The notes under the pieces are model-generated. The model did not search any database and was not told the DNA's origin. It saw only the letters and a list, made by a program, of their open reading frames with translations. Shown here piece by piece: positions 1,828 through 24,803 of a stretch of DNA of 43,069 nucleotides (the stretch's first letter is position 1; every line of letters starts with the position of its first letter). A program made the position numbers and the translations under genes. The stretch is from an uncultured Muribaculaceae bacterium. GTDB lineage: Bacteria; Bacillota_I; Bacilli_A; RF39; UBA660. The stretch is taken from contig CAYJNH010000002.1 in assembly GCA_964371705.1 (NCBI GenBank), forward strand, positions 1-43,069. The letters run 5' to 3'.

Positions 1828-2391
1828 TTATTTTGCTCGTAAAATAAAATCTATTACTACTTTATTAAATTCATGTGATGGATCCATATTTACAAGATGC
1901 CCTGCATTTTTAAAAACTATTACTTCGCTGTCAGGTTCTAAATTATCCCACATTTCAATTGCTTTTAATGCCATTGGAATATCTTTGTATCCACACCCGA
2001 TTAATACTGGATATTCCCTTTTTGTAGTATGTTTATTTACCATATTATTTAATCTAGCAAAATACACAAATGATTTTTTAGGAAACTTAATGTTCATTTG
2101 ATAGAATTCTTCTTGTGCTTGTGGTGTATAGGCTGAAATTAGTTTGTTACTTTGTGCAAACCATTTAATAGAAAACAAAGCCTTTAACATCATTAATCCT
2201 TGTACTTTTCAGTTTTCTTTTTGTATAGCTAAATCGAAATTATTTATATCATAGCCACCGAAACAAGAAATAGAAGATAACTTTTCTGGATACTTGTTTG
2301 CAAAATTTTGAATAAGTACTGCGCCAATTGATACTCCAACAAGGAAAATGTTTTGTAAAATTAATTGTAAATCACTTTTCCCATATTTTTC
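1828..2391 (-). pseudogene. alpha/beta-hydrolase remnant, N-terminally truncated with an in-frame TGA
   Basis: One reading frame is open from 2391 down to the TAA at 1828-1830 except for an in-frame TGA at 2211-2209. It reads EKYGKSDLQLILQNIFLVGVSIGAV...AIQKEN*KVQGLMMLKALF...GCGYKDIP...NAGHLVNMD. The nucleophile elbow G-V-S-I-G, the Asp and the His are present. The roughly 60-90 residues that normally precede the nucleophile are absent because a TAA at 2394-2392 closes the frame. Confidence 0.7.
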
Positions 2392-2617
2392 TTATTAATT
2401 TTAACGATAATGTTGACAGCGTAAAACCAATAACTGGGACTAAAGAACTTAAAAAAATATTGTTATTTTTATTTATTAAATAAGAATAACTAACAACCAC
2501 TATGTATGTTAAAATCATTATACTTATTCTTCTTGTTAAACTTGTTTCCCATGATTTATTTAATTCAACTTGTTTATTTCTTTCTTCTATTTTTTTTATT
2601 TTATTTTCTAAATTCAT
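2372..2617 (-). CDS. small membrane protein (charged N-terminus plus 2 predicted TM segments)
   Basis: ORF-track frame 2372..2626, trimmed to ATG 2617 because AAGGA (2630-2626) is then 8 nt upstream. Hydrophobic stretches are ISIMILTYIVVVSYSYLI and LSSLVPVIGFTLSTLSL. It ends in TGA. Confidence 0.5.
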   Translation of the reverse strand: MNLENKIKKIEERNKQVELNKSWETSLTRRISIMILTYIVVVSYSYLINKNNNIFLSSLVPVIGFTLSTLSLKLIRKIWEK

Positions 2618-2672
2618 ATTTATCATCCTTTTCTTTTTTTAACTTATTGTTTTATTTTTGTAATATATGTGA

Positions 2673-3575
2673 TTATTTAGTTTCTTTCTTTATTAAGTTA
2701 TTAATTAATCCTTGTTCCATATTAATTTTTGTTGGAATTATATATTTTGCATTTATTTTATTTGATATAACATTTGTAATTACTTTCATTGCTCTAGACC
2801 CGTCAAACCATAACGGATTATCACTATTGTTTCTTATTTGATCAAGTGATGTTACTAATGCATCTTTATCATATTTATCACTCATATCTTTAGTTAACAT
2901 ATATTTCTGATTTTCAGAAATATATATATCATTTTTCAACAAATTATACTTTGCATTATTATACCAATATAGATGATCCCCTCCTGCTAATATCAATACA
3001 TCGCTGTTAAGGTTTATATCTCCTATTAAATCAGCAACATAATTACTAACTTCATCAAAAGTACATTTAGGAATGTCTTCTTTTAATGTATTAAACTTTC
3101 TAGTTATATCTACTACACCAAAATCAAAATGCGTCTCTTTAATTATTTTGTTATCTTTTACAAATATTAATTCAGTAGAACCGCCACCGCCTATAAATAT
3201 ACATAAATTTTCTTTATAATCTAAATTTGCATAGCAACCTAATGCTGTAAATTTTGCTTCATCTTCTTGTGTAATTACTTCTATAGTAAGATTATACTTT
3301 TTCAGAATTTCTTTATTTATTTCATCTAATTCTTCACTTGTAATATTTCTAAATATGCTACATCCATATAGTTTAACATTCTTTGTAACATTAATTGCTT
3401 TTTCTATCACACCACACAATTTATTTAAATCACTTTGCTCTATTTTATTTTTTTTATAATAATTATTTTTAAATTCTATTGTGCAGTTATTACTTTTTTC
3501 TAATTTATTTAAATTATATATGTTTGTTTTAGTATTTGTACTACCAATTTCTATTATTGCTACTTTATCGTTCAT
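2673..3575 (-). CDS. Ppx/GppA-family phosphatase (ASKHA fold)
   Basis: VAIIEIGSTNTK corresponds to the D/E-x-GS-N/T-S/T phosphate-1 motif. ITQEDEAKF and IFIGGGGSTEL correspond to the DxGGGSxE motif. The 300-aa length fits two-domain Ppx/GppA enzymes. Confidence 0.8.
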   Translation of the reverse strand: MNDKVAIIEIGSTNTKTNIYNLNKLEKSNNCTIEFKNNYYKKNKIEQSDLNKLCGVIEKAINVTKNVKLYGCSIFRNITSEELDEINKEILKKYNLTIEVITQEDEAKFTALGCYANLDYKENLCIFIGGGGSTELIFVKDNKIIKETHFDFGVVDITRKFNTLKEDIPKCTFDEVSNYVADLIGDINLNSDVLILAGGDHLYWYNNAKYNLLKNDIYISENQKYMLTKDMSDKYDKDALVTSLDQIRNNSDNPLWFDGSRAMKVITNVISNKINAKYIIPTKINMEQGLINNLIKKETK

Positions 3576-3622
3576 AATTATCCTTCTTTTCTTATTAAAT
3601 GCTTTTAATTATTTTTCATTGT

Positions 3623-3937
3623 TTATGTTTGCTTTGTATTAGCTTTTATTCTTTTGAATTCTGATGACTTATTAAGTTCTTTATTTTTTTCTATATTTAA
3701 AAGTAGTGTACCAATTGCTTCTTTATTCCACAAAGCTTTTAATACAGGCACTGAAATGTGGCCATAAATTTTTGATCCAATATATTCTTCAAGATTCAAC
3801 TTTTTTGCTTGAATACCGTTGTTTCCGCTTATTATACATTCTTGAAAAATACTTTGATGTTCTTCAAAAAAAAGCTCTGTTTGATGTCTGTTTAATTCCA
3901 AACATGCAATTACCTCATTTTTATTAAGTTCATCCAC
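3623..3937 (-). CDS. hypothetical protein (104 aa)
   Basis: GTG start at 3937 with GGAGGGG 5 nt upstream. The start overlaps the TAG of the preceding mini-ORF by 1 nt. I recognise no motif. Confidence 0.5.
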   Translation of the reverse strand: MDELNKNEVIACLELNRHQTELFFEEHQSIFQECIISGNNGIQAKKLNLEEYIGSKIYGHISVPVLKALWNKEAIGTLLLNIEKNKELNKSSEFKRIKANTKQT

Positions 3938-4050
3938 TACACCCCTCCATATTGTTCTAAATCATTAAATGTAATAGCAGTTTGATCTGTATTATTTAAT
4001 AAAAAGTCAGGTGCTCCTCCTACTATATCTTCTAAATAAATTCTTATCAT
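3937..4050 (-). CDS. mini-ORF (37 aa), translationally coupled to the 104-aa ORF
   Basis: ATG 4050 with AAAGGAGAA upstream. My translation is MIRIYLEDIVGGAPDFLLNNTDQTAITFNDLEQYGGV. The TAG stop at 3939-3937 shares one nucleotide with the GTG of the next ORF. It is below the ORF-track length cut-off. Confidence 0.35.
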   Translation of the reverse strand: MIRIYLEDIVGGAPDFLLNNTDQTAITFNDLEQYGGV

Positions 4051-4071
4051 AGATTCTCCTTTATATACTTA

Positions 4072-4596
4072 TTACAAGTTGTCTAGTTCGCTTATCATTG
4101 TGTCATAATGACTATCTACTCTATTGGTGATGTCGATATTTAACTCTTTAGCGATATCTAATAACTTTTTTTCATAATCAATATTATCTTCTTCATCAAT
4201 TAACATTTCAATTTCAATAAAAGTACCTAACTTTTCTACCTCATCAATACAAATATTACAATTTTTATATTTGGCATGTTTTCTAACTTTATTTACTTCT
4301 ACCCATTTTTGATATCCTAATGCTTCAAGAAAATCATTTGCTTTTTTATATGAATTTACTTCAAATTCTATTTCTTTTGATTCCATTTTTTTAGAACTTT
4401 GTTTTTTTAGATTTAATTCAACTACACCGTTTGTGTCTCTAACTCTTAACCAAACTGATCCTTCAGTGCTTTTTACATTATTTAAATCTAATACATATAC
4501 TGTATCTTTTTGATTTAGTGGTTCACTAATTTCTTGCAGCATATTTATAACATCGGCTACACTATTAACTTTAAATTTCAATTCTATTTCTCTCAT
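4072..4596 (-). CDS. CYTH-domain protein (CyaB-like class IV adenylyl cyclase / triphosphate tunnel metalloenzyme)
   Basis: The N-terminal REIELKFKV carries the ExExK signature of CYTH domains. The 174-aa size is typical of stand-alone CYTH proteins. A GGAGGAAC RBS is present. Confidence 0.8.
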   Translation of the reverse strand: MREIELKFKVNSVADVINMLQEISEPLNQKDTVYVLDLNNVKSTEGSVWLRVRDTNGVVELNLKKQSSKKMESKEIEFEVNSYKKANDFLEALGYQKWVEVNKVRKHAKYKNCNICIDEVEKLGTFIEIEMLIDEEDNIDYEKKLLDIAKELNIDITNRVDSHYDTMISELDNL

Positions 4597-4619
4597 TTGT
4601 TCCTCCGTTATTTTTTCTT

Positions 4620-5198
4620 TTATGGTTTTATTTGATTACTAAAATGCAAATAACAATCTGGAGTATGATCATTAACCATTCCAGTTGCTTGCATGAAAGC
4701 ATATACTGTTGTTGGCCCTAAAAATTTAAAACCATATTTTTTTAAATCTTTACTTATTTTTTCTGATATTTCAGTTGTAGCTACGGTTTCATTATTAATT
4801 GATCTTTGACCTATAATAGGTGTATTGTTAACATAACTCCATATAAAATTATCAAAACTGCCATACTGTTTTTGTATATTTAAAAATAATTTTGCATTAT
4901 TAATAGCAGCTAAAATTTTTCCTTTATGGCGAATAATTTTTTCATTATTTAGTAACTCTTCTATTTTATCTTCATTGTAATTAGCAACTATTTTAGGTAT
5001 AAAGTTATCAAAGGCTATTAAAAATGCTTCTCTTTTTTTTAGTATAGTAATCCAAGATATACCTGCTTGAAAGGCTTCTAATGTCAGCATTTCAAATAAT
5101 TTGTTATCATCATGCGTTTCTTTTCCCCATTCATTATCATGATAATCTTGATATATTTGAGAACCATCTAACCAAAAACATCTTTTTTTATCGTTCAT
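4620..5198 (-). CDS. tag: DNA-3-methyladenine glycosylase I
   Basis: CFWLDGSQIYQDYHDNEWG...LTLEAFQAGISW is a typical Tag N-terminus with HhH-GPD-like core segments. Length 192 aa. Confidence 0.9.
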   Translation of the reverse strand: MNDKKRCFWLDGSQIYQDYHDNEWGKETHDDNKLFEMLTLEAFQAGISWITILKKREAFLIAFDNFIPKIVANYNEDKIEELLNNEKIIRHKGKILAAINNAKLFLNIQKQYGSFDNFIWSYVNNTPIIGQRSINNETVATTEISEKISKDLKKYGFKFLGPTTVYAFMQATGMVNDHTPDCYLHFSNQIKP

Positions 5199-5286
5199 AT
5201 CTTTCTCCTCTTTTATTTTGTTAATGCTTAACCTTATTACTTACTCACATTATATCATTTTTAATTCTTAGTACCAATGTTTTTTA

Positions 5287-6225
5287 TTAAAATAATGACA
5301 TTTGCGCTTTTTTCACACTTTTAGTCTCTCTATTAGTTATAATAGCGTTTTGAGGTACATCACCTATTAATGAAGGTGAATTAGGATTGTGATTTTTTAT
5401 GTTTTCTAATGAACTTTTTTCGCTTTTTAATGCATAACAATAATTACAACCATTATTACAACAGTTGTAAGTTCCAATTTCAATACTCTCTACACATCTA
5501 CATTCTTCTCTTTGGTTTTTATCTATTTTTACATCTATTTGTATATTAAGTATTTCTTCAATTAATTCTTTGTCTATACATGCACTTTTATTAATGTCAT
5601 ATATAGTTAAATCCACTGCTTCACTGCAAGTATATAATTTCATGTTATTTTCTGAAGCTATTTTAGAAAACTTTTCTGCTAATATATGTATCTTATCAAT
5701 TGTTAATGAATTAGCTGGATTGCCACCCATTCTTCGTGTAACATTTTTATAATCATCTACAAAACTGATAATACATCTATTTGTATATCCTTTTAATTTA
5801 TTAGCCATATATTTAAATAGTTTTTCGTGATATTCAATAGTAAATTTATCGTTAATAATAATTGGATCATATCTCCATACCATTTTGATATTTCCTATTT
5901 TATTACTTAAATATATAAAAGATTCTAGCAATTCTTTTTTACTTGGTAAATTTTTTTCAACGCTTTTATCATAAGGAGTTATAGTAAACTGAAAATAATA
6001 AATATATCCCATTTTACCTATTTCATCCAAATATTTATAGAAAGGTATTGGATTTTTGGTCCAAAAAACTATAATATCAACAGCTTCTTTTGTTAATATA
6101 GCTTTTGAATATCTTTCTGGATTATATGGATTTTGTATTAAAACATATCCATCCTTTAATCTATTTAAAAACCACTGTCCATACTGTGCTGGAATATCAG
6201 TTCTTCTTGTAGCGCTAATTATCAT
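5287..6225 (-). CDS. DUF1848-family protein (Cys-rich; found with DNA-repair genes)
   Basis: MIISATRRTDIPAQYGQWF is the characteristic DUF1848 N-terminus as I recall it. The C-terminal half has the cysteine cluster CRCVESIEIGTYNCCNNGCNYCYA. An ATGA overlap links it to ogt. Confidence 0.7.
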   Translation of the reverse strand: MIISATRRTDIPAQYGQWFLNRLKDGYVLIQNPYNPERYSKAILTKEAVDIIVFWTKNPIPFYKYLDEIGKMGYIYYFQFTITPYDKSVEKNLPSKKELLESFIYLSNKIGNIKMVWRYDPIIINDKFTIEYHEKLFKYMANKLKGYTNRCIISFVDDYKNVTRRMGGNPANSLTIDKIHILAEKFSKIASENNMKLYTCSEAVDLTIYDINKSACIDKELIEEILNIQIDVKIDKNQREECRCVESIEIGTYNCCNNGCNYCYALKSEKSSLENIKNHNPNSPSLIGDVPQNAIITNRETKSVKKAQMSLF

Positions 6226-6686
6226 TTGCTTTCTTTTTCCATTTTTAACAGAACTTCCTTCATATCTAAACCGCCTGCGTAGCCTACTAATTTGTTGTTT
6301 GATCCGATAACTCTATGACATGGAACTGCTATTGTTATAGGATTTTTGTTATTAGCCATACCTACAGCTCTACTTGCTTTTTCATTGCCTACTATAGTAG
6401 CTATTTCCTTATATGTTCTAGTTTCACCATATGGAATTGTGCATAAAGCTTTCCAAACTTTCATTTGAAATTCAGTACCACTTAATTTATATTTAAAATC
6501 GAATGTTTTTCTTTCTCCTTTGAAATACTGATTTAATTGGTTTATAACTTCATTTGTAAATTTTGTTTTTTCACCATAATCTTTAGGGTCTTCTTTTAAT
6601 TTTTTTAAGTATACTACATTATCTTCTTCATATGATACTTTAATCAAACCAAAATTTGTTTTATATACTGCATAACCTTTCATCAT
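6222..6686 (-). CDS. ogt: methylated-DNA--protein-cysteine methyltransferase
   Basis: Active-site PCHRV motif (VPCHRVIGSN) and the upstream YGETRTYKEIA helix. An ATGA overlap links it to adaA. Confidence 0.92.
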   Translation of the reverse strand: MMKGYAVYKTNFGLIKVSYEEDNVVYLKKLKEDPKDYGEKTKFTNEVINQLNQYFKGERKTFDFKYKLSGTEFQMKVWKALCTIPYGETRTYKEIATIVGNEKASRAVGMANNKNPITIAVPCHRVIGSNNKLVGYAGGLDMKEVLLKMEKESK

Positions 6687-7237
6687 TTCGCCTTTTTGTT
6701 TTCCTTTCTATATTTTGTTGGTGTTAAATTACAACTATCTTTAAACGTTTTATAAAAAGCTGAACTACTCCCAAATCCAACTGAGTATACTATGTTTATT
6801 ATACTGTCTTCAGTTTCTATTAATAGTTTTTTTGACTGTTCTAATCTTATATTATTTAAATATTGATTTGGTGTAATTTCATATTCTTTTTGAAATATTT
6901 CCACCACTCTTTTTTTAGATATCCCTAATTTATTTATAGTATTATCTAATAGTTCGTATTCAGTATAATTATTTTCAATTTTTAATTTCAGCATCTTTGC
7001 TAGCTCTTTCATAGGTTTATATTCTATCAAATCGCTTCGGCATCTTTTACATGGTCTATAGCCTTTTTTTATAGCTGAATCAGAATTATCAAAAAATTCT
7101 ACATTTTCTTTATTAGGTAACTTTGATTTACAAGATGGTTTACAATATATACCAGTTGTTTTTACTGCATAAAAAAATGCTGAATCGTAGTTTTCATCAT
7201 TATTTTTTATTATTTTATATTTTTCTTCAAAATTCAT
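6683..7237 (-). CDS. adaA: Ada-type methylphosphotriester-DNA methyltransferase / AraC-family regulator
   Basis: FFYAVKTTGIYCKPSCKSK...RPCKRCRSD is the Ada Zn/Cys4 N-terminal domain and closely resembles B. subtilis AdaA. The C-terminal AraC-type HTH is IVYSVGFGSSSAFYKTFK. Confidence 0.88.
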   Translation of the reverse strand: MNFEEKYKIIKNNDENYDSAFFYAVKTTGIYCKPSCKSKLPNKENVEFFDNSDSAIKKGYRPCKRCRSDLIEYKPMKELAKMLKLKIENNYTEYELLDNTINKLGISKKRVVEIFQKEYEITPNQYLNNIRLEQSKKLLIETEDSIINIVYSVGFGSSSAFYKTFKDSCNLTPTKYRKENKKAK

Positions 7238-7238
7238 A

Positions 7239-7937
7239 TTATACTTTCTTTCTTTTTAATTTATTTAACTCTTCCTTTGTTATTTTATCTACACGAAATG
7301 ATTCTCTGATTTTTTGAATTGCTTTGTTAAACGTAAAATCATCTAGGTTATTATTTAATAAATATTTATGTGTTTGCTTCGGAAATTTAACATAGCATAT
7401 TGATAAACACCATGCTACTGCCATTTTTACATAATATTCTTCATTTTTAATAGTGTCACATACATGCAATATATCATCTATGTACTCTTTTTTTATAAAA
7501 TGAAATAACATTAATACTACTGCAAATCTAATTTCATATTCTTTATTAGAAGTATAGTATTTTTCTAAAAATTCCCATACTCTCTTATCGTAATTTCTAA
7601 CTATTTTCAGTTCACTACAAAAACTATCACAAATGGACCAATTTGATATTTTAGGAATAAATAATTCGACTTGTTTTAAAACTATTTCAATATCTTCTTT
7701 TAAATTTCCTATTATAAATCCTTTTAACATAGTTTCTTCAAAATATATATCATTTGCATTATTTAAATATTCTATTTCATCATTTTTAACCATTTTTTTA
7801 GCTATTTTTCTTATCTCAGGAATTCTAACTCCTATCAAATTATTAATTCCTGGTATTAATGATGAAGCAAATACTTTATATTTTTCTTCACTTAATGCTA
7901 TTAACTCTTTTCGCACTTCTTTTTCTTTACTAATCAT
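7239..7937 (-). CDS. DNA alkylation repair protein (AlkD/AlkC-like HEAT-repeat glycosylase family)
   Basis: The repeat helical pattern and segments such as ISNWSICDSF, EIRFAVVLML and VKMAVAWCLS fit the alkylation-repair HEAT family. The gene is adjacent to adaA-ogt. Confidence 0.72.
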   Translation of the reverse strand: MISKEKEVRKELIALSEEKYKVFASSLIPGINNLIGVRIPEIRKIAKKMVKNDEIEYLNNANDIYFEETMLKGFIIGNLKEDIEIVLKQVELFIPKISNWSICDSFCSELKIVRNYDKRVWEFLEKYYTSNKEYEIRFAVVLMLFHFIKKEYIDDILHVCDTIKNEEYYVKMAVAWCLSICYVKFPKQTHKYLLNNNLDDFTFNKAIQKIRESFRVDKITKEELNKLKRKKV

Positions 7938-13187: not shown

Positions 13188-13796
13188 TTATTTTTTACGT
13201 TCTCCTCTTCTTCTTATCAATTCTTTTTGAAGCATCTCTATATCTTTAGTGAGTTCGATTATTTTTTCCTCATTTTCTATAATTTGATCTTTAATCATAT
13301 TTATTAAATGATGTTCTTGAAATGCTGCTAAATCATAACTCTGATCATATATTTCTATTTCTTCTGTTTTACTATCTTGACCATATGTTATATATGATTT
13401 ATCGTCGTTAAAAGTTATTGTTTTTGCAGTTTTAAGTTTTTCTTCTGCGATAAATTGAAATACTAATGCGTTTAACTTCGAAGGATTTTTATTATATATT
13501 TTTTGTTCCATCTTATTCATATATTCAATTGTCATACTGCTTGTAATTGAGTTTATTAATCTAGTTGAAGACATCTTTAAAGCTAGTGTAAAATATAATG
13601 CAAGCAATATATTAATAAATGGAGTGAATATAGCTAGTATAACTAGAGGATTTAATTCTTTGTCTCCTTTTTCTGAAGATGGTTTAATTTTGTAACCATC
13701 ATCTGCAAATTTTTTTATAACATCCAGCATTAAATTTACATCTAGACCTAACGCGATTATAATTGTCAGTATGCTTGTTATTATTAATGTAGTCAT
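13188..13796 (-). CDS. hypothetical membrane protein with C-terminal coiled coil
   Basis: Hydrophobic segments are TLIITSILTIIIALGL and LVILAIFTPFINILLALYFTLAL. The heptad-like C-terminus is IENEEKIIELTKDIEMLQKELIRRR. The start lies 2 nt after the stop of the upstream ORF. Confidence 0.55.
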   Translation of the reverse strand: MTTLIITSILTIIIALGLDVNLMLDVIKKFADDGYKIKPSSEKGDKELNPLVILAIFTPFINILLALYFTLALKMSSTRLINSITSSMTIEYMNKMEQKIYNKNPSKLNALVFQFIAEEKLKTAKTITFNDDKSYITYGQDSKTEEIEIYDQSYDLAAFQEHHLINMIKDQIIENEEKIIELTKDIEMLQKELIRRRGERKK

Positions 13797-13798
13797 GT

Positions 13799-14542
13799 TT
13801 ATCTTCTCATTTCTTCTTGGTTTATATTTTCATTTTGTTTATATTCAGATATTATATTTACTGTTTGTTGCATTGATTCAAGATCTTTTTTTGCACTTTG
13901 TATTTCTTTTAATTTTTCTGAAGATGGAAATGCATGCAAATATTCTGGATTATCTTCTTTATTTTCTGGTAATTCATTTCTTTTTAATATTTTGTTTGAA
14001 TCTTCCTTTGTCAAGTTTTTATCTGTGCGCATAAAACTTATATTATATTTTTTTCGTTTTTTTCCTATTTTAGAAAAATTTCCTGTTCCTACATTTTCAA
14101 GTAAACTATTTATAAAAGTATCTTTTTTTGCTTTTCCTTTTACTTCTAAACTTTCTATATAACCTAATTTTTCTAATTCTTTTAATCCTTGTAAAACTAT
14201 TGCTTGGCTAACAGTTGTATATTTTTCATTTTCGTTCATGTTTTCAAGTAAATTGATAAGATTTTTAGAAAAATACTCGTTTTTGTTTTTTATAAAAAAG
14301 CTTTTTATAATACTTTTTCCCATTTTTTGAGATATGCTTTTTTCTCCATCTTTGTTTCTAACTCTAGAAATTTTAAACATATCTGATTTTTTATTTTCAT
14401 AAAATATTTTGTTATTTACAATACTTATTGGAATTAAAAAAACTAGTGTTCCAGCTGCTATTATTGGATTTAAAATTGCTAATATTAATAAAATTCCTAT
14501 TGCTGATATTTCTAAAATATCTTTTATATTTATTTTTTTCAT
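13799..14542 (-). CDS. hypothetical membrane-anchored protein with a winged-helix-like segment
   Basis: The N-terminal hydrophobic hairpin is ISAIGILLILAILNPIIAAGTLVFLIPI. The central TTVSQAIVLQGLKELEKLGYIESLEV looks like a wHTH recognition region. An ATGA overlap links it to the upstream NUDIX gene. Confidence 0.55.
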   Translation of the reverse strand: MKKINIKDILEISAIGILLILAILNPIIAAGTLVFLIPISIVNNKIFYENKKSDMFKISRVRNKDGEKSISQKMGKSIIKSFFIKNKNEYFSKNLINLLENMNENEKYTTVSQAIVLQGLKELEKLGYIESLEVKGKAKKDTFINSLLENVGTGNFSKIGKKRKKYNISFMRTDKNLTKEDSNKILKRNELPENKEDNPEYLHAFPSSEKLKEIQSAKKDLESMQQTVNIISEYKQNENINQEEMRR

Positions 14543-14985
14543 ATTTTATCTACCACCTTTTTTAATATGTGTTTTGCTAATAATGACATATCATTTTCTT
14601 TTAATTTGTTTATATCAAAAAATTTTGCTCCCAATGAATCATTATTTTGCTTACTTAATTCTATATTTTCAGATAATTCATTTTCGTATTTATTAATAGT
14701 GTAGAATATAGCTGTATGATGGACTTTATAAATATCATTTTCATTTTCCCAAATAGGAACGACTGTTGCTACATCTAATAAAGATTGCTTTAGTATATTT
14801 AAACCAGTTTCTTCTAAAAATTCTCTTTTTAATGTTTCTTCAGGACTTTCACCAAATTCCATTGAACCGCCAGGTAAATCTAGTTTACCAGTATACGGAC
14901 CAGCTGCTTTTTTTATTAATAAAATTTTATTATTTTCTATAACTATGCCATATATACCTAGATGTCTATGTTCTTTATACTTCAT
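14539..14985 (-). CDS. NUDIX hydrolase
   Basis: NUDIX box GGSMEFGESPEETLKREFLEETGL, with an AAGGAG RBS. Confidence 0.85.
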   Translation of the reverse strand: MKYKEHRHLGIYGIVIENNKILLIKKAAGPYTGKLDLPGGSMEFGESPEETLKREFLEETGLNILKQSLLDVATVVPIWENENDIYKVHHTAIFYTINKYENELSENIELSKQNNDSLGAKFFDINKLKENDMSLLAKHILKKVVDKI

Positions 14986-15011
14986 ATATGCTCCTTAAAT
15001 TTATTATAACA

Positions 15012-15035
15012 TAAAAAAATAGTAGTAAACTACTA
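15012..15035 (-). terminator. intrinsic terminator closing the ncRNA / 4-TM-protein unit
   Basis: On the minus strand: TAGTAG-ttta-CTACTA (15035-15020) followed by TTTTTTT. The hairpin overlaps the TAG stop of the 179-aa ORF. Confidence 0.6.
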
Positions 15036-15572
15036 AAATTTATAAAATATATGTATTATTTTTCCTACTTTTTCAACTATTTTTTTAGAATTTTTTATAG
15101 CATATGATTTACCAATTGCTTTTCCGCCTACAGTTAAAGAAGCTACAAAACTACTTACAATTAAACTGATTAATACTATATTTATATTAAAAGTGACTGA
15201 TAAAGATATAGCTATAACAGCAGCTAGTGAACCTGATATTACACCACATATATCACCAATTACATCATTTGCTATATTACTTACTTTAGCCGCATTTTTA
15301 ATCATAAACAAACTTTCTTTTGCACCTTTATGTTTTTTTGCTGCTCTTGCATGATGTGAATGTTCTGCATCAGATACTACAGCTACTCCTATTACATCAA
15401 AAAACACACCTATTAATATTATTACTACCATTGCAATTATAGCGTAAAAAGTACTAAATGAATTTACTACAATATTTGATACAACTCCAAATAATGCAGA
15501 TAATATAAAGGTAATAACAAATATCGCTGCTATCCATAATCTTTCTTTTCTTTTTTTATTTTTTGCTTTCAT
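15033..15572 (-). CDS. four-TM membrane protein with DxxxD motif (OapA-like candidate)
   Basis: 179 aa with a basic N-terminus (KAKNKKRKER) and four hydrophobic segments. A basic loop between TM2 and TM3 reads HHARAAKKHKGAKESLFMIKNAAK. NDVIGDICGVISG sits at the start of TM3. A GGAGA RBS is present. The gene lies directly downstream of, and co-oriented with, the 0.5-kb non-coding segment. Confidence 0.65.
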   Translation of the reverse strand: MKAKNKKRKERLWIAAIFVITFILSALFGVVSNIVVNSFSTFYAIIAMVVIILIGVFFDVIGVAVVSDAEHSHHARAAKKHKGAKESLFMIKNAAKVSNIANDVIGDICGVISGSLAAVIAISLSVTFNINIVLISLIVSSFVASLTVGGKAIGKSYAIKNSKKIVEKVGKIIHIFYKF

Positions 15573-15584
15573 ATTTCTCCAAAA

Positions 15585-16083
15585 ATAAATGCATAACTAT
15601 GTATGCATATTAAAGTGTTGTGGTAATATTTTAAATAAATTTTACGGCTTAGGTCAAGTTTGTTTTCCACGTTTTACATCCTTTGGTTACCCTCAGGTGA
15701 TTTCTCTTTCAGAAAAACGAGTGACTGTCACCAGCTCACTTACTTGATGACCACTTAGTCCGTACTTCAATCTTTAAAATATCTACATTGTAACATTCTA
15801 GAGGATTTCCCAAACAAAATTTTACCTGTTATTATTCGCTTTTGCAAAAACAATTTCAACTAAGTATCCGCTGTTTTCACTCACGACAAGCAATTTTTAA
15901 TTAAGTTGGAATATACTAGGCGACGATTATATGCCATTATAATTTTACCTAATATTATTATTCATATACCCACCCTAATCTGGGCGAAAAAAGCAAGTAT
16001 ACAAATATCCTTCATTACTTAAATGATGAATTTTTAGCCTCATCTTCAAACAGAAATTTCGACTAGAATAATGCACCACACGA
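15585..16083 (-). ncRNA. large (about 470-500 nt) candidate structured RNA, OLE-like by context; class unverified
   Basis: Neither strand has an ORF of 60 aa or more across 15573-16123. I counted 23/60 and 24/60 G+C in lines 15661-15720 and 15721-15780, against 13/60 in coding line 15061-15120. A consensus promoter lies immediately upstream. The 5' UGUGGU (16080-16075) can pair with ACCACA (15624-15619), enclosing about 450 nt. A 3' hairpin AUGCAUA-6nt-UAUGCAU (15608-15589) is followed by a U-rich tract. Confidence 0.55.
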
Positions 16084-16088
16084 TTACA

Positions 16089-16117
16089 ATTATATAATAT
16101 TTTTGTTAATTTGTCAA
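16089..16117 (-). promoter_or_regulatory. consensus sigma-A promoter driving the ncRNA
   Basis: On the minus strand: TTGACA (16117-16112), exactly 17 nt, then TATAAT (16094-16089). The predicted start is around 16082. Confidence 0.7.
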
Positions 16118-16123
16118 AATTAC

Positions 16124-16429
16124 TTACTCAACATCTATAATTATACTTTTCCATTTTCCTATTAATGTAATATCTTCTGTTACTTCTTTAGTAAAATCAT
16201 ATTTTTCACCATCTAAATACCATCCATCAAATATGTAATCTGATAATACTGGAGTATCTGGTTCACTTACTACATTTCCATTTACAACTTTTTCAGCTGC
16301 TACACTTGTTCCTCCTTGAGAATCAAATATAACATCATGACTTCTAAATACATATAATCCTATCATTAATAATATTAGTAAGATTACACTTATAGCTATA
16401 AAACTTAATAACAAATTTTTTTTCATCAC
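16124..16429 (-). CDS. membrane-anchored protein with one Listeria-Bacteroides (Flg_new-type) repeat
   Basis: An N-terminal TM segment (LLLSFIAISVILLILLMIGLYVF) is followed by VIFDSQGGTSV...P..P...YIFDGWYLDGEKYDF...V.EDITLIGKW, which matches the repeat pattern. Confidence 0.6.
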   Translation of the reverse strand: MMKKNLLLSFIAISVILLILLMIGLYVFRSHDVIFDSQGGTSVAAEKVVNGNVVSEPDTPVLSDYIFDGWYLDGEKYDFTKEVTEDITLIGKWKSIIIDVE

Positions 16430-16472: not shown

Positions 16473-16883
16473 TTATCTACTTTTGTTTATTGTATTTTCA
16501 AGTTCATAATTATAAATATAAGTGTATTTCTTTTTTGTTTCTTGTTCTACAATATAGAGTTCTTTTAACATTTTCTTTATTTTTTCTATCTTCATATGTT
16601 TTTTATATTTATTAAGAATAATTTCCTCTATTCTTTGAATATCACCTAATAATGAAACAATACCATCTTCTCCGGTTTCATCAAGTAATAAAAATGATTT
16701 AATAATTTTTTTATATTTTTTTAAAAATTTTTGAGTTATTGTGTACTCTATAATTTTTTCATCATAAAGCATCATTTTATCTATACTAAATTCTGACATT
16801 TTAGGATAGATTGCTATGCCTTCTTCTATTTTCATATCAAATTCTTTTCCACTTATTTTAGTGTCTACAATTTCGTATTTCAT
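16473..16883 (-). CDS. hypothetical protein (137 aa)
   Basis: ORF-track frame 16473..16925 would overlap trmD by 37 nt. I trimmed it to ATG 16883 (MKYEIVD...). No motif recognised. Confidence 0.5.
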   Translation of the reverse strand: MKYEIVDTKISGKEFDMKIEEGIAIYPKMSEFSIDKMMLYDEKIIEYTITQKFLKKYKKIIKSFLLLDETGEDGIVSLLGDIQRIEEIILNKYKKHMKIEKIKKMLKELYIVEQETKKKYTYIYNYELENTINKSR

Positions 16884-16888
16884 AATAT

Positions 16889-17527
16889 CTATCTTTCTAT
16901 TTTTTTGCGATTCTTCTCTCGCCAATCATTTATAAGTTTATGATTTCCATTTATTAAGACTTCTGGAACTTTCATTCCATTGTATTCAGCAGGTTTGGTA
17001 TACGATGGGTAGTCATAGTATTCATCATCAAAAGATTCAACGTCTAAACTTGACTTATTGATTACTCCTGGTAGAAGCCTAACAATTGAATCACATATTG
17101 CCATCGCTGGTATCTCTCCACCTGTTAAAATATAATCTCCTATAGATATTATTTCATCTGCTAATGATTTTATTCTTTCATCAAATCCCTCGTAGTGACC
17201 ACATATAATAATTATATGTTTAAAATTCAATAATTTTTTAGCTGTTTGCTGATTATATGTTGCACCTTCAGGACTCAATATTATTATATGACTATCATCT
17301 GTTTTAATGTCATTAATTGCATCGAAAATAGGTTCACATCTAAGCAGCATACCAGGTCCTCCGCCGTATATAGTGTCATCTACTTGATTGTTGCTTAATT
17401 TAGAATAATCTCTAAAATTTATTGTGTTTATTGAAACGTAATCATTATTGATTGCTCTTTTTATAATTGATTCAGTTTTAAATCCGTTAAACATTTCTGG
17501 AAATAATGTAAGTATATCTATTTTCAT
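16889..17527 (-). CDS. trmD: tRNA (guanine37-N1)-methyltransferase
   Basis: MKIDILTLFPEMF...DDTIYGGGPGMLL...ICGHYEGFDERI...SIGDYILTGGEIPAM are classic TrmD motifs. An ATGA overlap links it to rimM. Confidence 0.96.
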   Translation of the reverse strand: MKIDILTLFPEMFNGFKTESIIKRAINNDYVSINTINFRDYSKLSNNQVDDTIYGGGPGMLLRCEPIFDAINDIKTDDSHIIILSPEGATYNQQTAKKLLNFKHIIIICGHYEGFDERIKSLADEIISIGDYILTGGEIPAMAICDSIVRLLPGVINKSSLDVESFDDEYYDYPSYTKPAEYNGMKVPEVLINGNHKLINDWREKNRKKIER

Positions 17528-24638: not shown

Positions 24639-24723
24639 TGGTGCAAGCAAAGGGACTTGAACCCCCATGGAATACTCCACTAGATCCTAAGTCTAGCGCG
24701 TCTACCAATTTCGCCATGCTTGC
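24639..24723 (-). tRNA. tRNA-Leu (anticodon UAG), CCA encoded
   Basis: The reverse complement folds as a class II tRNA: acceptor GCAAGCA/UGCUUGC, anticodon arm CUAGA-CUUAGGA-UCUAG, a long variable arm, a GGUUCAAGUCC T-arm and a 3' ACCA. Confidence 0.92.
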
Positions 24724-24726
24724 ATA

Positions 24727-24803
24727 TGGTGGTCCTCGTAGGACTCGAACCTACGACCGCCCGGTTATGAGCCGGATGCTCTAACCAACTGAGCTAGAGG
24801 ACC
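24727..24803 (-). tRNA. tRNA with CAU anticodon (Met, or more likely lysidine-modified Ile2), CCA encoded
   Basis: GGUCCUC-UA-GCUC-AGUUGGUUA-GAGC-A-UCCGG-CUCAUAA-CCGGG-CGGUC-GUAGG-UUCGAGU-CCUAC-GAGGACC-ACCA. The D-arm, T-arm and variable loop strongly resemble B. subtilis tRNA-Ile(CAU) as I recall it. Confidence 0.9.

Follow-up and report, generated by a model that had tools for sequence, protein, structure and literature searches.

What is encoded by half a kilobase of DNA that holds no long open reading frame (ORF) and lies directly upstream of a gene for a small membrane protein? The question is raised by a locus in a 43,069-nucleotide (nt) stretch of contig CAYJNH010000002.1 (hereafter the window), from an uncultured bacterium of the RF39 lineage. 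A first-pass annotation had singled out positions 15573-16123 as the only long ORF-free stretch in the window. Indeed, at 551 nt it is the longest stretch without an ORF of at least 60 amino acids; the runner-up measures 178 nt. Two answers had been offered for it: a size-reduced form of the ornate, large, extremophilic (OLE) RNA followed by its membrane partner OapA, or a distinct large RNA paired with an OapA-like protein.

We scanned the whole window with Rfam 15 at gathering thresholds. Positions 15604-16095 of the minus strand match OLE RNA (RF01071) with 242 bits (E = 2.5e-67; the gathering score for OLE is 50). The match is not truncated: it spans model positions 1-616, that is, the full model. 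This result decides for the first answer and excludes a new RNA class. A permissive cmscan (E ≤ 1) of positions 14950-16200 against all 4227 Rfam families gave no match besides OLE, which excludes ROOL, GOLLD, raiA, RNase P, tmRNA, 6S, SRP, T-box and group II intron. A degraded gene is likewise excluded, as the sole ORF in the stretch is a 52-residue ORF on the plus strand and the substitutions among related sequences are compensatory, not codon-like. The G+C enrichment noticed by eye is also real: the 492-nt RNA segment has 31.9% G+C, compared to a window mean of 25.6% (standard deviation 3.1%), and falls at the 97th percentile of 492-nt windows.

We conclude with high confidence that this is an ole-oapA locus, in which oapA, encoding the membrane partner, lies directly downstream of a reduced OLE RNA of about 465-500 nt. 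In the order of transcription, its parts are as follows.

16089-16117, minus strand: sigma-70-type promoter TTGACA-17-TATAAT, a 12/12 consensus match upstream of OLE.
15604-16095, minus strand: OLE RNA gene in reduced form (Rfam RF01071), with a structured core at about 16080-15619 that is closed by helix P1 (UGUGGU/ACCACA).
15581-15608, minus strand: AT-rich hairpin AUGCAUA/UAUGCAU (15608-15589) and then the U-run UUAUUUUU (15588-15581), between OLE and the oapA ribosome-binding site.
15580-15577, minus strand: ribosome-binding site GGAG, directly 5′ of oapA.
15033-15572, minus strand: oapA, encoding a 179-residue membrane protein with four hydrophobic segments, a DxxxD motif and no proline.
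15013-15035, minus strand: weak terminator-like hairpin UAGUAG-UUUA-CUACUA (15035-15020, including the oapA stop codon) and then U7 (15019-15013).

At 492 nt, the window OLE falls short of the approximately 600 nt and the full helix set (P7, P8 and a long P9 arch) expected of a complete member, and about 120 nt are missing relative to the Rfam model. Three losses account for its small size: P7, P8 and the distal arch of P9, which bears the kissing loop. P7 and P8, the two hairpins that follow P6 (model positions of about 198-280), are reduced to 16 nt, while the distal part of P9 shrinks from 46 nt to 1 nt. We named the deleted elements by comparison with the full-length copy in a related locus, L010 (671 nt, 477 bits), and with the published nomenclature.

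Other parts of the RNA are kept. All 12 OLEs that we aligned retain the A-rich P4 loop (L4) CUAAAAAU, the P5.1 loop GCCCA and the P6.1 loop AAUGGCAU. They also share a GGAAA hairpin, the blocks ACGGACUAAGUGG and GACCUAAGCCG, a P13 hairpin whose GNRA loop and single-nucleotide bulge correspond to the OapB site, and P14.1, a second GNRA hairpin. In the window, the two GNRA loops are GUGA in P13, which has the bulge, and GUAA in P14.1. Besides the P4, P5.1 and P6.1 loops, the reduced OLE retains P1-P3, which are long-range helices, and its 3′ domain in full. By covariance model it belongs to the same family as the full-length OLE of H. halodurans and C. acetobutylicum (RF01071), with the same helix order, P10 to P15, L4/L5.1/L6.1 and GNRA loops, but measures about 490 rather than about 600 nt and is without P7, P8 and the P9 arch.

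Cryo-electron microscopy (cryo-EM) has defined four dimerization centers in OLE: the P4-P4 loops, two P5.1-P6.1 kissing contacts and a P9-P9 kissing loop (Lyon and Breaker 2025). The P9.3 loop covaries among the palindromes GGCC, GAUC and AGCU (Kretsch et al.). The window OLE keeps the loops of three of the four contacts (L4, L5.1 and L6.1), and the P9 kissing loop is gone. P7 and P8 make no dimer contact in the cryo-EM study, which may be why some natural OLEs do without them. OLE is one of the largest RNAs conserved in bacteria, and what it does biochemically is not known even in the model species, so each naturally reduced form shows which of its parts are dispensable. The deletions seen here suggest that the core function does not require P7, P8 or the P9 kissing-loop arch.

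To place the window OLE among its relatives, we collected 19 related loci. A protein scan covering one genome per species gave 11, and look-ups of eight further homologs gave eight more. An Rfam-significant OLE lies directly upstream of the oapA homolog in 19 of these 19 loci, or 20 of 20 with the window, with one small ORF intervening in L004 and L005. The adjacency of OLE and oapA, which the first-pass annotation had given as established, thus holds throughout our sample. The more distant relatives were deposited as Bacilli, Bacillota or Clostridia metagenome-assembled genomes (MAGs) from gut samples. By size and retained helices, the RNAs form four tiers.

Full-length tier: L010, 671 nt and 477 bits, with all helices.
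Intermediate tier: L007, L008, L009 and L011 (584-596 nt) and L013, with a shortened P7/P8 region and an intact P9 arch bearing a GGCC loop.
P7/P8-less tier: L015, 546 nt, without P7 and P8 but with the arch, which bears an AGCU loop.
Minimal tier: the window, L001-L006 and L016-L019, 480-498 nt, without P7, P8 and the arch.

The range of 584-596 nt refers to four complete copies; L013 measures 519 nt because its 5′ end is cut by the contig edge. Our motif-based measurement did not place L012 (564 nt) and L014 (541 nt) in a tier. Overall, 11 of the 20 OLEs sampled, in at least three genomic contexts, are without the distal arch of P9 and thus without the palindromic loop that makes the fourth published dimer contact. 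Among the RNAs that keep the arch, the longer forms bear GGCC. One of the intermediate loci, L007, from a goat-rectum Bacilli MAG, also contains a glmS ribozyme (positions 4060-4212, minus strand; 75.5 bits) about 2 kb upstream of its OLE locus.

Reduced OLEs have been described before. According to Fernando and Breaker (2024, mSphere, PMC11332333), OLE "variants" occur in gut MAGs with reduced genomes, among them those of RF39 and TANB77, mostly without OapB and OapC. In their text, the stems of P7, P8 and P9 are described as shorter in "variant 1", and P7 and P8 as entirely absent from "variant 2", which is common in the RF39 clade. The window OLE resembles variant 2 in lacking P7 and P8, in keeping the highly conserved nucleotides of full-length OLE and in its reduced-genome hosts. 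Its 242 bits lie inside the variant-2 band of 235-310 bits, a band that was set with the authors' own model and not with that of Rfam. Beyond the losses that the text names for variant 2, the window OLE is also without the distal arch of P9 and the palindromic kissing loop that it carries.

The deletions at this locus place the window OLE among the published reduced variants, inside the OLE family. The first-pass finding stands and its interpretation was correct. Its novelty was overstated, since the family is in Rfam and reduced variants of this kind were published in 2024. The locus represents no class of its own and confirms that a pared-back OLE-OapA pair persists in gut Bacillota whose genomes are small and AT-rich. 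What novelty is left is modest: the clade-specific insertion in the rimM-trmD-rplS region, the layout with its own promoter and a weak terminator, and the natural loss of the P9 dimerization loop in a sizeable share of reduced OLEs. Of these, we did not find the loss of that loop described in the OLE literature that we consulted.

One stronger claim can be formulated, although we lean against it for now. The locus might be a natural minimal OLE of about 465-500 nt, without P7, P8, the P9 arch and the fourth dimerization center, forming an autonomous cassette of promoter, RNA, leaky terminator and oapA. If true and not noted before, this would show that the P9 kissing loop is dispensable in nature, and structural and reconstitution studies would gain the smallest OLE-OapA pair found in nature. 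Independently of this claim, an RNA of 0.5 kb with a single 179-residue partner might serve well as a minimal system for reconstitution.

Comparison with the relatives shows that the helices of the RNA are maintained by compensatory changes. The pairing of UGUGGU (16080-16075) with ACCACA (15624-15619), already proposed as the closing helix in the first-pass annotation, forms P1 in both consensus folds. Three of its six pairs are changed on both sides among the relatives (for example, AUGGC/GCCAU in L009). Across the 12-sequence OLE alignment, 97.6% of the structure cells are standard pairs and 70 of the 125 pairs show compensatory, two-sided changes. None of 500 shuffles reaches the observed values, and sliding the partners by 1-3 columns leaves about 41% paired, with 15-24 two-sided pairs. 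Although the consensus structure was derived from the same 12 sequences, which favors it, the margin is very large and the independent Rfam model agrees.

This pattern is difficult to reconcile with the view that the RNA is a decaying relic. In that scenario, genome shrinkage removed P7, P8 and the P9 arch and left a nonfunctional OLE, so that only oapA matters, as a small CNNM-like cation transporter. In its favor, the 242 bits of the window OLE are half of the 477 bits of the full-length copy, and one published dimer contact is lost. Even within the clade alone, however, 40 of 143 predicted pairs are compensatory, and its seven members share both the reduced architecture and long invariant blocks. 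A relic would also be expected neither to keep its promoter, which is conserved, nor to recur in reduced form in other OapA lineages and contexts (L016-L019), nor to stay linked to oapA in 20 of 20 loci. The missing protein partners could be counted for decay as well: Pfam identified no OapB-like or OapC-like protein among essentially all ORFs of the window, which covers only 43 kb. Such genomes reportedly mostly lack these genes, and their absence here fits that reported loss while proving nothing genome-wide. Overall, we regard decay as very improbable.

We then considered whether the protein encoded downstream is OapA. As the first-pass annotation had described, the 179-residue ORF has four hydrophobic segments, here seen on a Kyte-Doolittle plot, and a basic loop. 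Its N-terminus is basic as well. Its DVIGD sequence occupies residues 103-107. The DxxxD motif that the first-pass annotation had linked to OapA is a published hallmark of the protein, and here D103 and D107 are invariant, both in a set of 16 and in a set of 41 homologs. The protein contains no prolines at all and hence lacks the conserved CNNM proline. It matches the Pfam CNNM family with 26.8 bits, just under the cut-off of 28.4. NCBIfam gave a sub-threshold match to the SA1362 family only, which is uninformative.

Searches against known structures point to the same fold. The sole phmmer match in the PDB, which holds no OapA structure, is the archaeal Mg2+ transporter CorB (7m1t/7m1u). An AlphaFold 2 model built with the 41 homologs is all-helical, with a predicted local distance difference test (pLDDT) score of 85.6, and its top Foldseek matches are again CorB 7m1t/7m1u (probability 1.00, template modeling score 0.60); CorB alone turned up by both sequence and Foldseek. 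These features coincide with the published description of OapA. According to Fernando and Breaker 2024 (PMC11332333), OapA is CNNM-like, with 7M1U as its best structural match, but has four transmembrane helices instead of three, a DxxxD motif that CNNM domains lack, and no conserved CNNM proline.

Because DxxxD, the absence of proline, the four segments and the CorB-like fold match that description, we identify the protein as OapA. It has the DxxxD motif, is small (about 20 kDa) with four transmembrane segments, and combines a CNNM-like fold with the absence of the CNNM proline. It is 46.5% identical to the OapA homolog beside the full-length OLE of L010 (477 bits). The MpfA/CorB/CNNM Mg2+ transporters (PF01595; 7M1T, 7M1U) share a related transmembrane fold, and CorB is its best PDB match by sequence and by structure. 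Unlike them, OapA has no CBS or CorC domains, possesses a fourth transmembrane helix and DxxxD, lacks the CNNM proline, and is always paired with OLE RNA. In placing oapA directly downstream of OLE and encoding an OapA with DxxxD and four transmembrane segments, the window resembles full-length OLE loci.

The first-pass annotation had called the locus a self-contained module. The perfect promoter that it reported is the sole 12/12 consensus match in the 6 kb that we scanned. This match alone proves little because promoter-like sites are as frequent here as in shuffled sequence (50 found, 47 expected). The assignment is supported instead by conservation: in most related loci a TTGAC(A/T) −35 box and a −10 box occur at the same place upstream of OLE, and aligning the clade shows that the −10 box is maintained. 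Transcription would start at about 16085-16081. A second promoter-like site, TTGACC-18-TAAAAT (15628-15657, minus strand), lies within the OLE 3′ domain, where the conserved ACUUGACCUAAGCCG block includes its −35-like hexamer. This site may be coincidental or may serve as an internal oapA promoter.

The 3′ boundaries are less sharp. No strong terminator precedes oapA, as had been stated, but a conserved AT-rich hairpin and U-run that had been overlooked is present there (15608-15581). Its fold is not significant by energy (−5.9 to −6.3 kcal/mol, z = −0.8 against shuffles). We found an equivalent hairpin and U-run in L001-L005, and in L002 both arms are changed (AUGACAUAAA/UUUAUGUCAU). The element is probably a leaky intrinsic terminator or a 3′-end element of OLE. 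The hairpin that had been proposed to end the unit after oapA does exist, with its UAGUAG/CUACUA arms and U7, but it is weak (−6.9 kcal/mol, z = −2.4 against shuffles). A terminator scanner called neither hairpin; the one after oapA went uncalled because it has too few G-C pairs. The locus is therefore a module in having its own conserved promoter and a weak hairpin and U-run after oapA, but a further hairpin and U-run divides OLE from oapA within it.

Two of the related loci show that this division can be wider. In L004 (5331-5582, 83 residues) and L005 (6629-6940, 103 residues), an extra small ORF, to which no family could be assigned, lies between OLE and oapA. It has its own consensus-like promoter (TTGACT-17-TATAAT in L004), downstream of the hairpin and U-run. 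Because a promoter and an ORF intervene in these loci, OLE appears to be a separate transcription product and not merely the leader of oapA. The idea that OLE is mainly a cis-acting 5′ regulatory region of oapA, such as a Mg2+-sensing attenuator that uses the hairpin and U-run, draws on the position of OLE directly upstream of oapA on the same strand, on the hairpin and U-run 8 nt before the ribosome-binding site and on the 31 nt between OLE and oapA, in which a separate oapA promoter is not evident, but it is very improbable, given the L004 and L005 arrangement, the abundant and stable OLE RNA of H. halodurans, which binds OapA, OapB and OapC, and a hairpin that is constant, with no evident alternative-pairing switch (not exhaustively tested).

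How might a reduced OLE and OapA work together? The identity of the RNA, its compensatory helices, its deletions and the OapA hallmarks come from the present analysis, while the mechanism is modeled on H. halodurans and on the C. acetobutylicum cryo-EM work. By analogy, OLE would be transcribed from its own sigma-70 promoter. Most transcripts would end at the weak hairpin and U-run, and read-through would supply the oapA mRNA; a leaky terminator of this kind would make OLE RNA more abundant than the oapA message. OapA dimers would then bind OLE and hold the RNA at or in the membrane. The resulting particle may help the cell to withstand stress from Mg2+, cold, alcohols and poor carbon sources, and its probable mode of action is control over the transport of divalent cations by the CNNM-like OapA. 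In the known systems, OapB is a KOW/S1-like protein, OapC belongs to the YbxF/L7Ae family, and the OLE k-turn is the OapC/bS21 site. This low-G+C lineage would probably use a pared-down particle with fewer protein partners, as Fernando and Breaker propose for reduced-genome gut MAGs.

Several points weigh against this picture of a working OLE-OapA particle, in which the expression, RNA ends and localization of the window OLE are predictions. Dimerization of the window OLE is an assumption because the P9 kissing loop, and with it the fourth contact, has been lost. The element that divides OLE from oapA has little thermodynamic stability and is absent from L006. For the protein, homology to a bona fide OapA is suggested by the hallmarks and by the neighbor of the full-length OLE in L010.

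The first-pass annotation had also considered the position of the locus, between trmD and rplS, to be unusual. This was overstated: OLE-oapA pairs occur in several contexts among the relatives, and within this clade a position between trmD and rplS is the rule. At high protein identity, the window and L001-L006 share the order ygjP-like gene, spoU-type methylase, rimM, trmD, a clade-specific ORF, a small Listeria-Bacteroides-repeat protein, OLE and oapA, followed by a variable segment, rplS and lepB. The rimM-trmD-ORF-OLE-oapA-rplS-lepB order recurs in L016, with an OapA of only 55% identity. In other lineages OLE-oapA lies between argS/ygjV and bipA, or between aroA and acpS. Because contexts differ between lineages in this way, OLE and oapA appear to travel as a pair, with the trmD-rplS site as a clade trait. 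We found no mention of OLE RNA together with trmD in the searchable literature. Compared with full-length OLE loci, which form part of a long polycistronic operon, the window OLE has a promoter to itself, and it lies between trmD and rplS in a segment of 25.6% G+C, with no OapB or OapC gene in the 43 kb.

Several neighboring genes have features of their own. In the window, the variable segment between oapA and rplS consists of a NUDIX gene and two lysine-rich ORFs (202 and 247 residues; 13188-14542) without a Pfam or NCBIfam match. The clade-specific ORF overlaps the 3′ end of trmD (16473-16925, 150 residues). It also has no Pfam or NCBIfam match and is conserved in the clade, but evolves fast (28-50% identity). 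In L006, an insert (2075-5149) between the small Listeria-Bacteroides-repeat gene and OLE breaks the clade synteny; it encodes a 797-residue, surface-protein-like protein with tandem repeats of the 'FDTSQVTDMSxMF' type and a 197-residue ORF.

Elsewhere, a Pfam scan of the ORFs indicates that the gene content of the window is ordinary chromosomal housekeeping. Positions 4620-7937 contain a compact alkylation-repair cluster made up of a 3-methyladenine glycosylase, a DUF1848 protein, an Ogt methyltransferase, an Ada-type zinc-binding domain fused to an AraC-family regulator, and an AlkD-like DNA alkylation repair protein. The highest G+C of the window is found at two adjacent tRNA genes (24642-24803, minus strand; Rfam tRNA, 71 and 58 bits).

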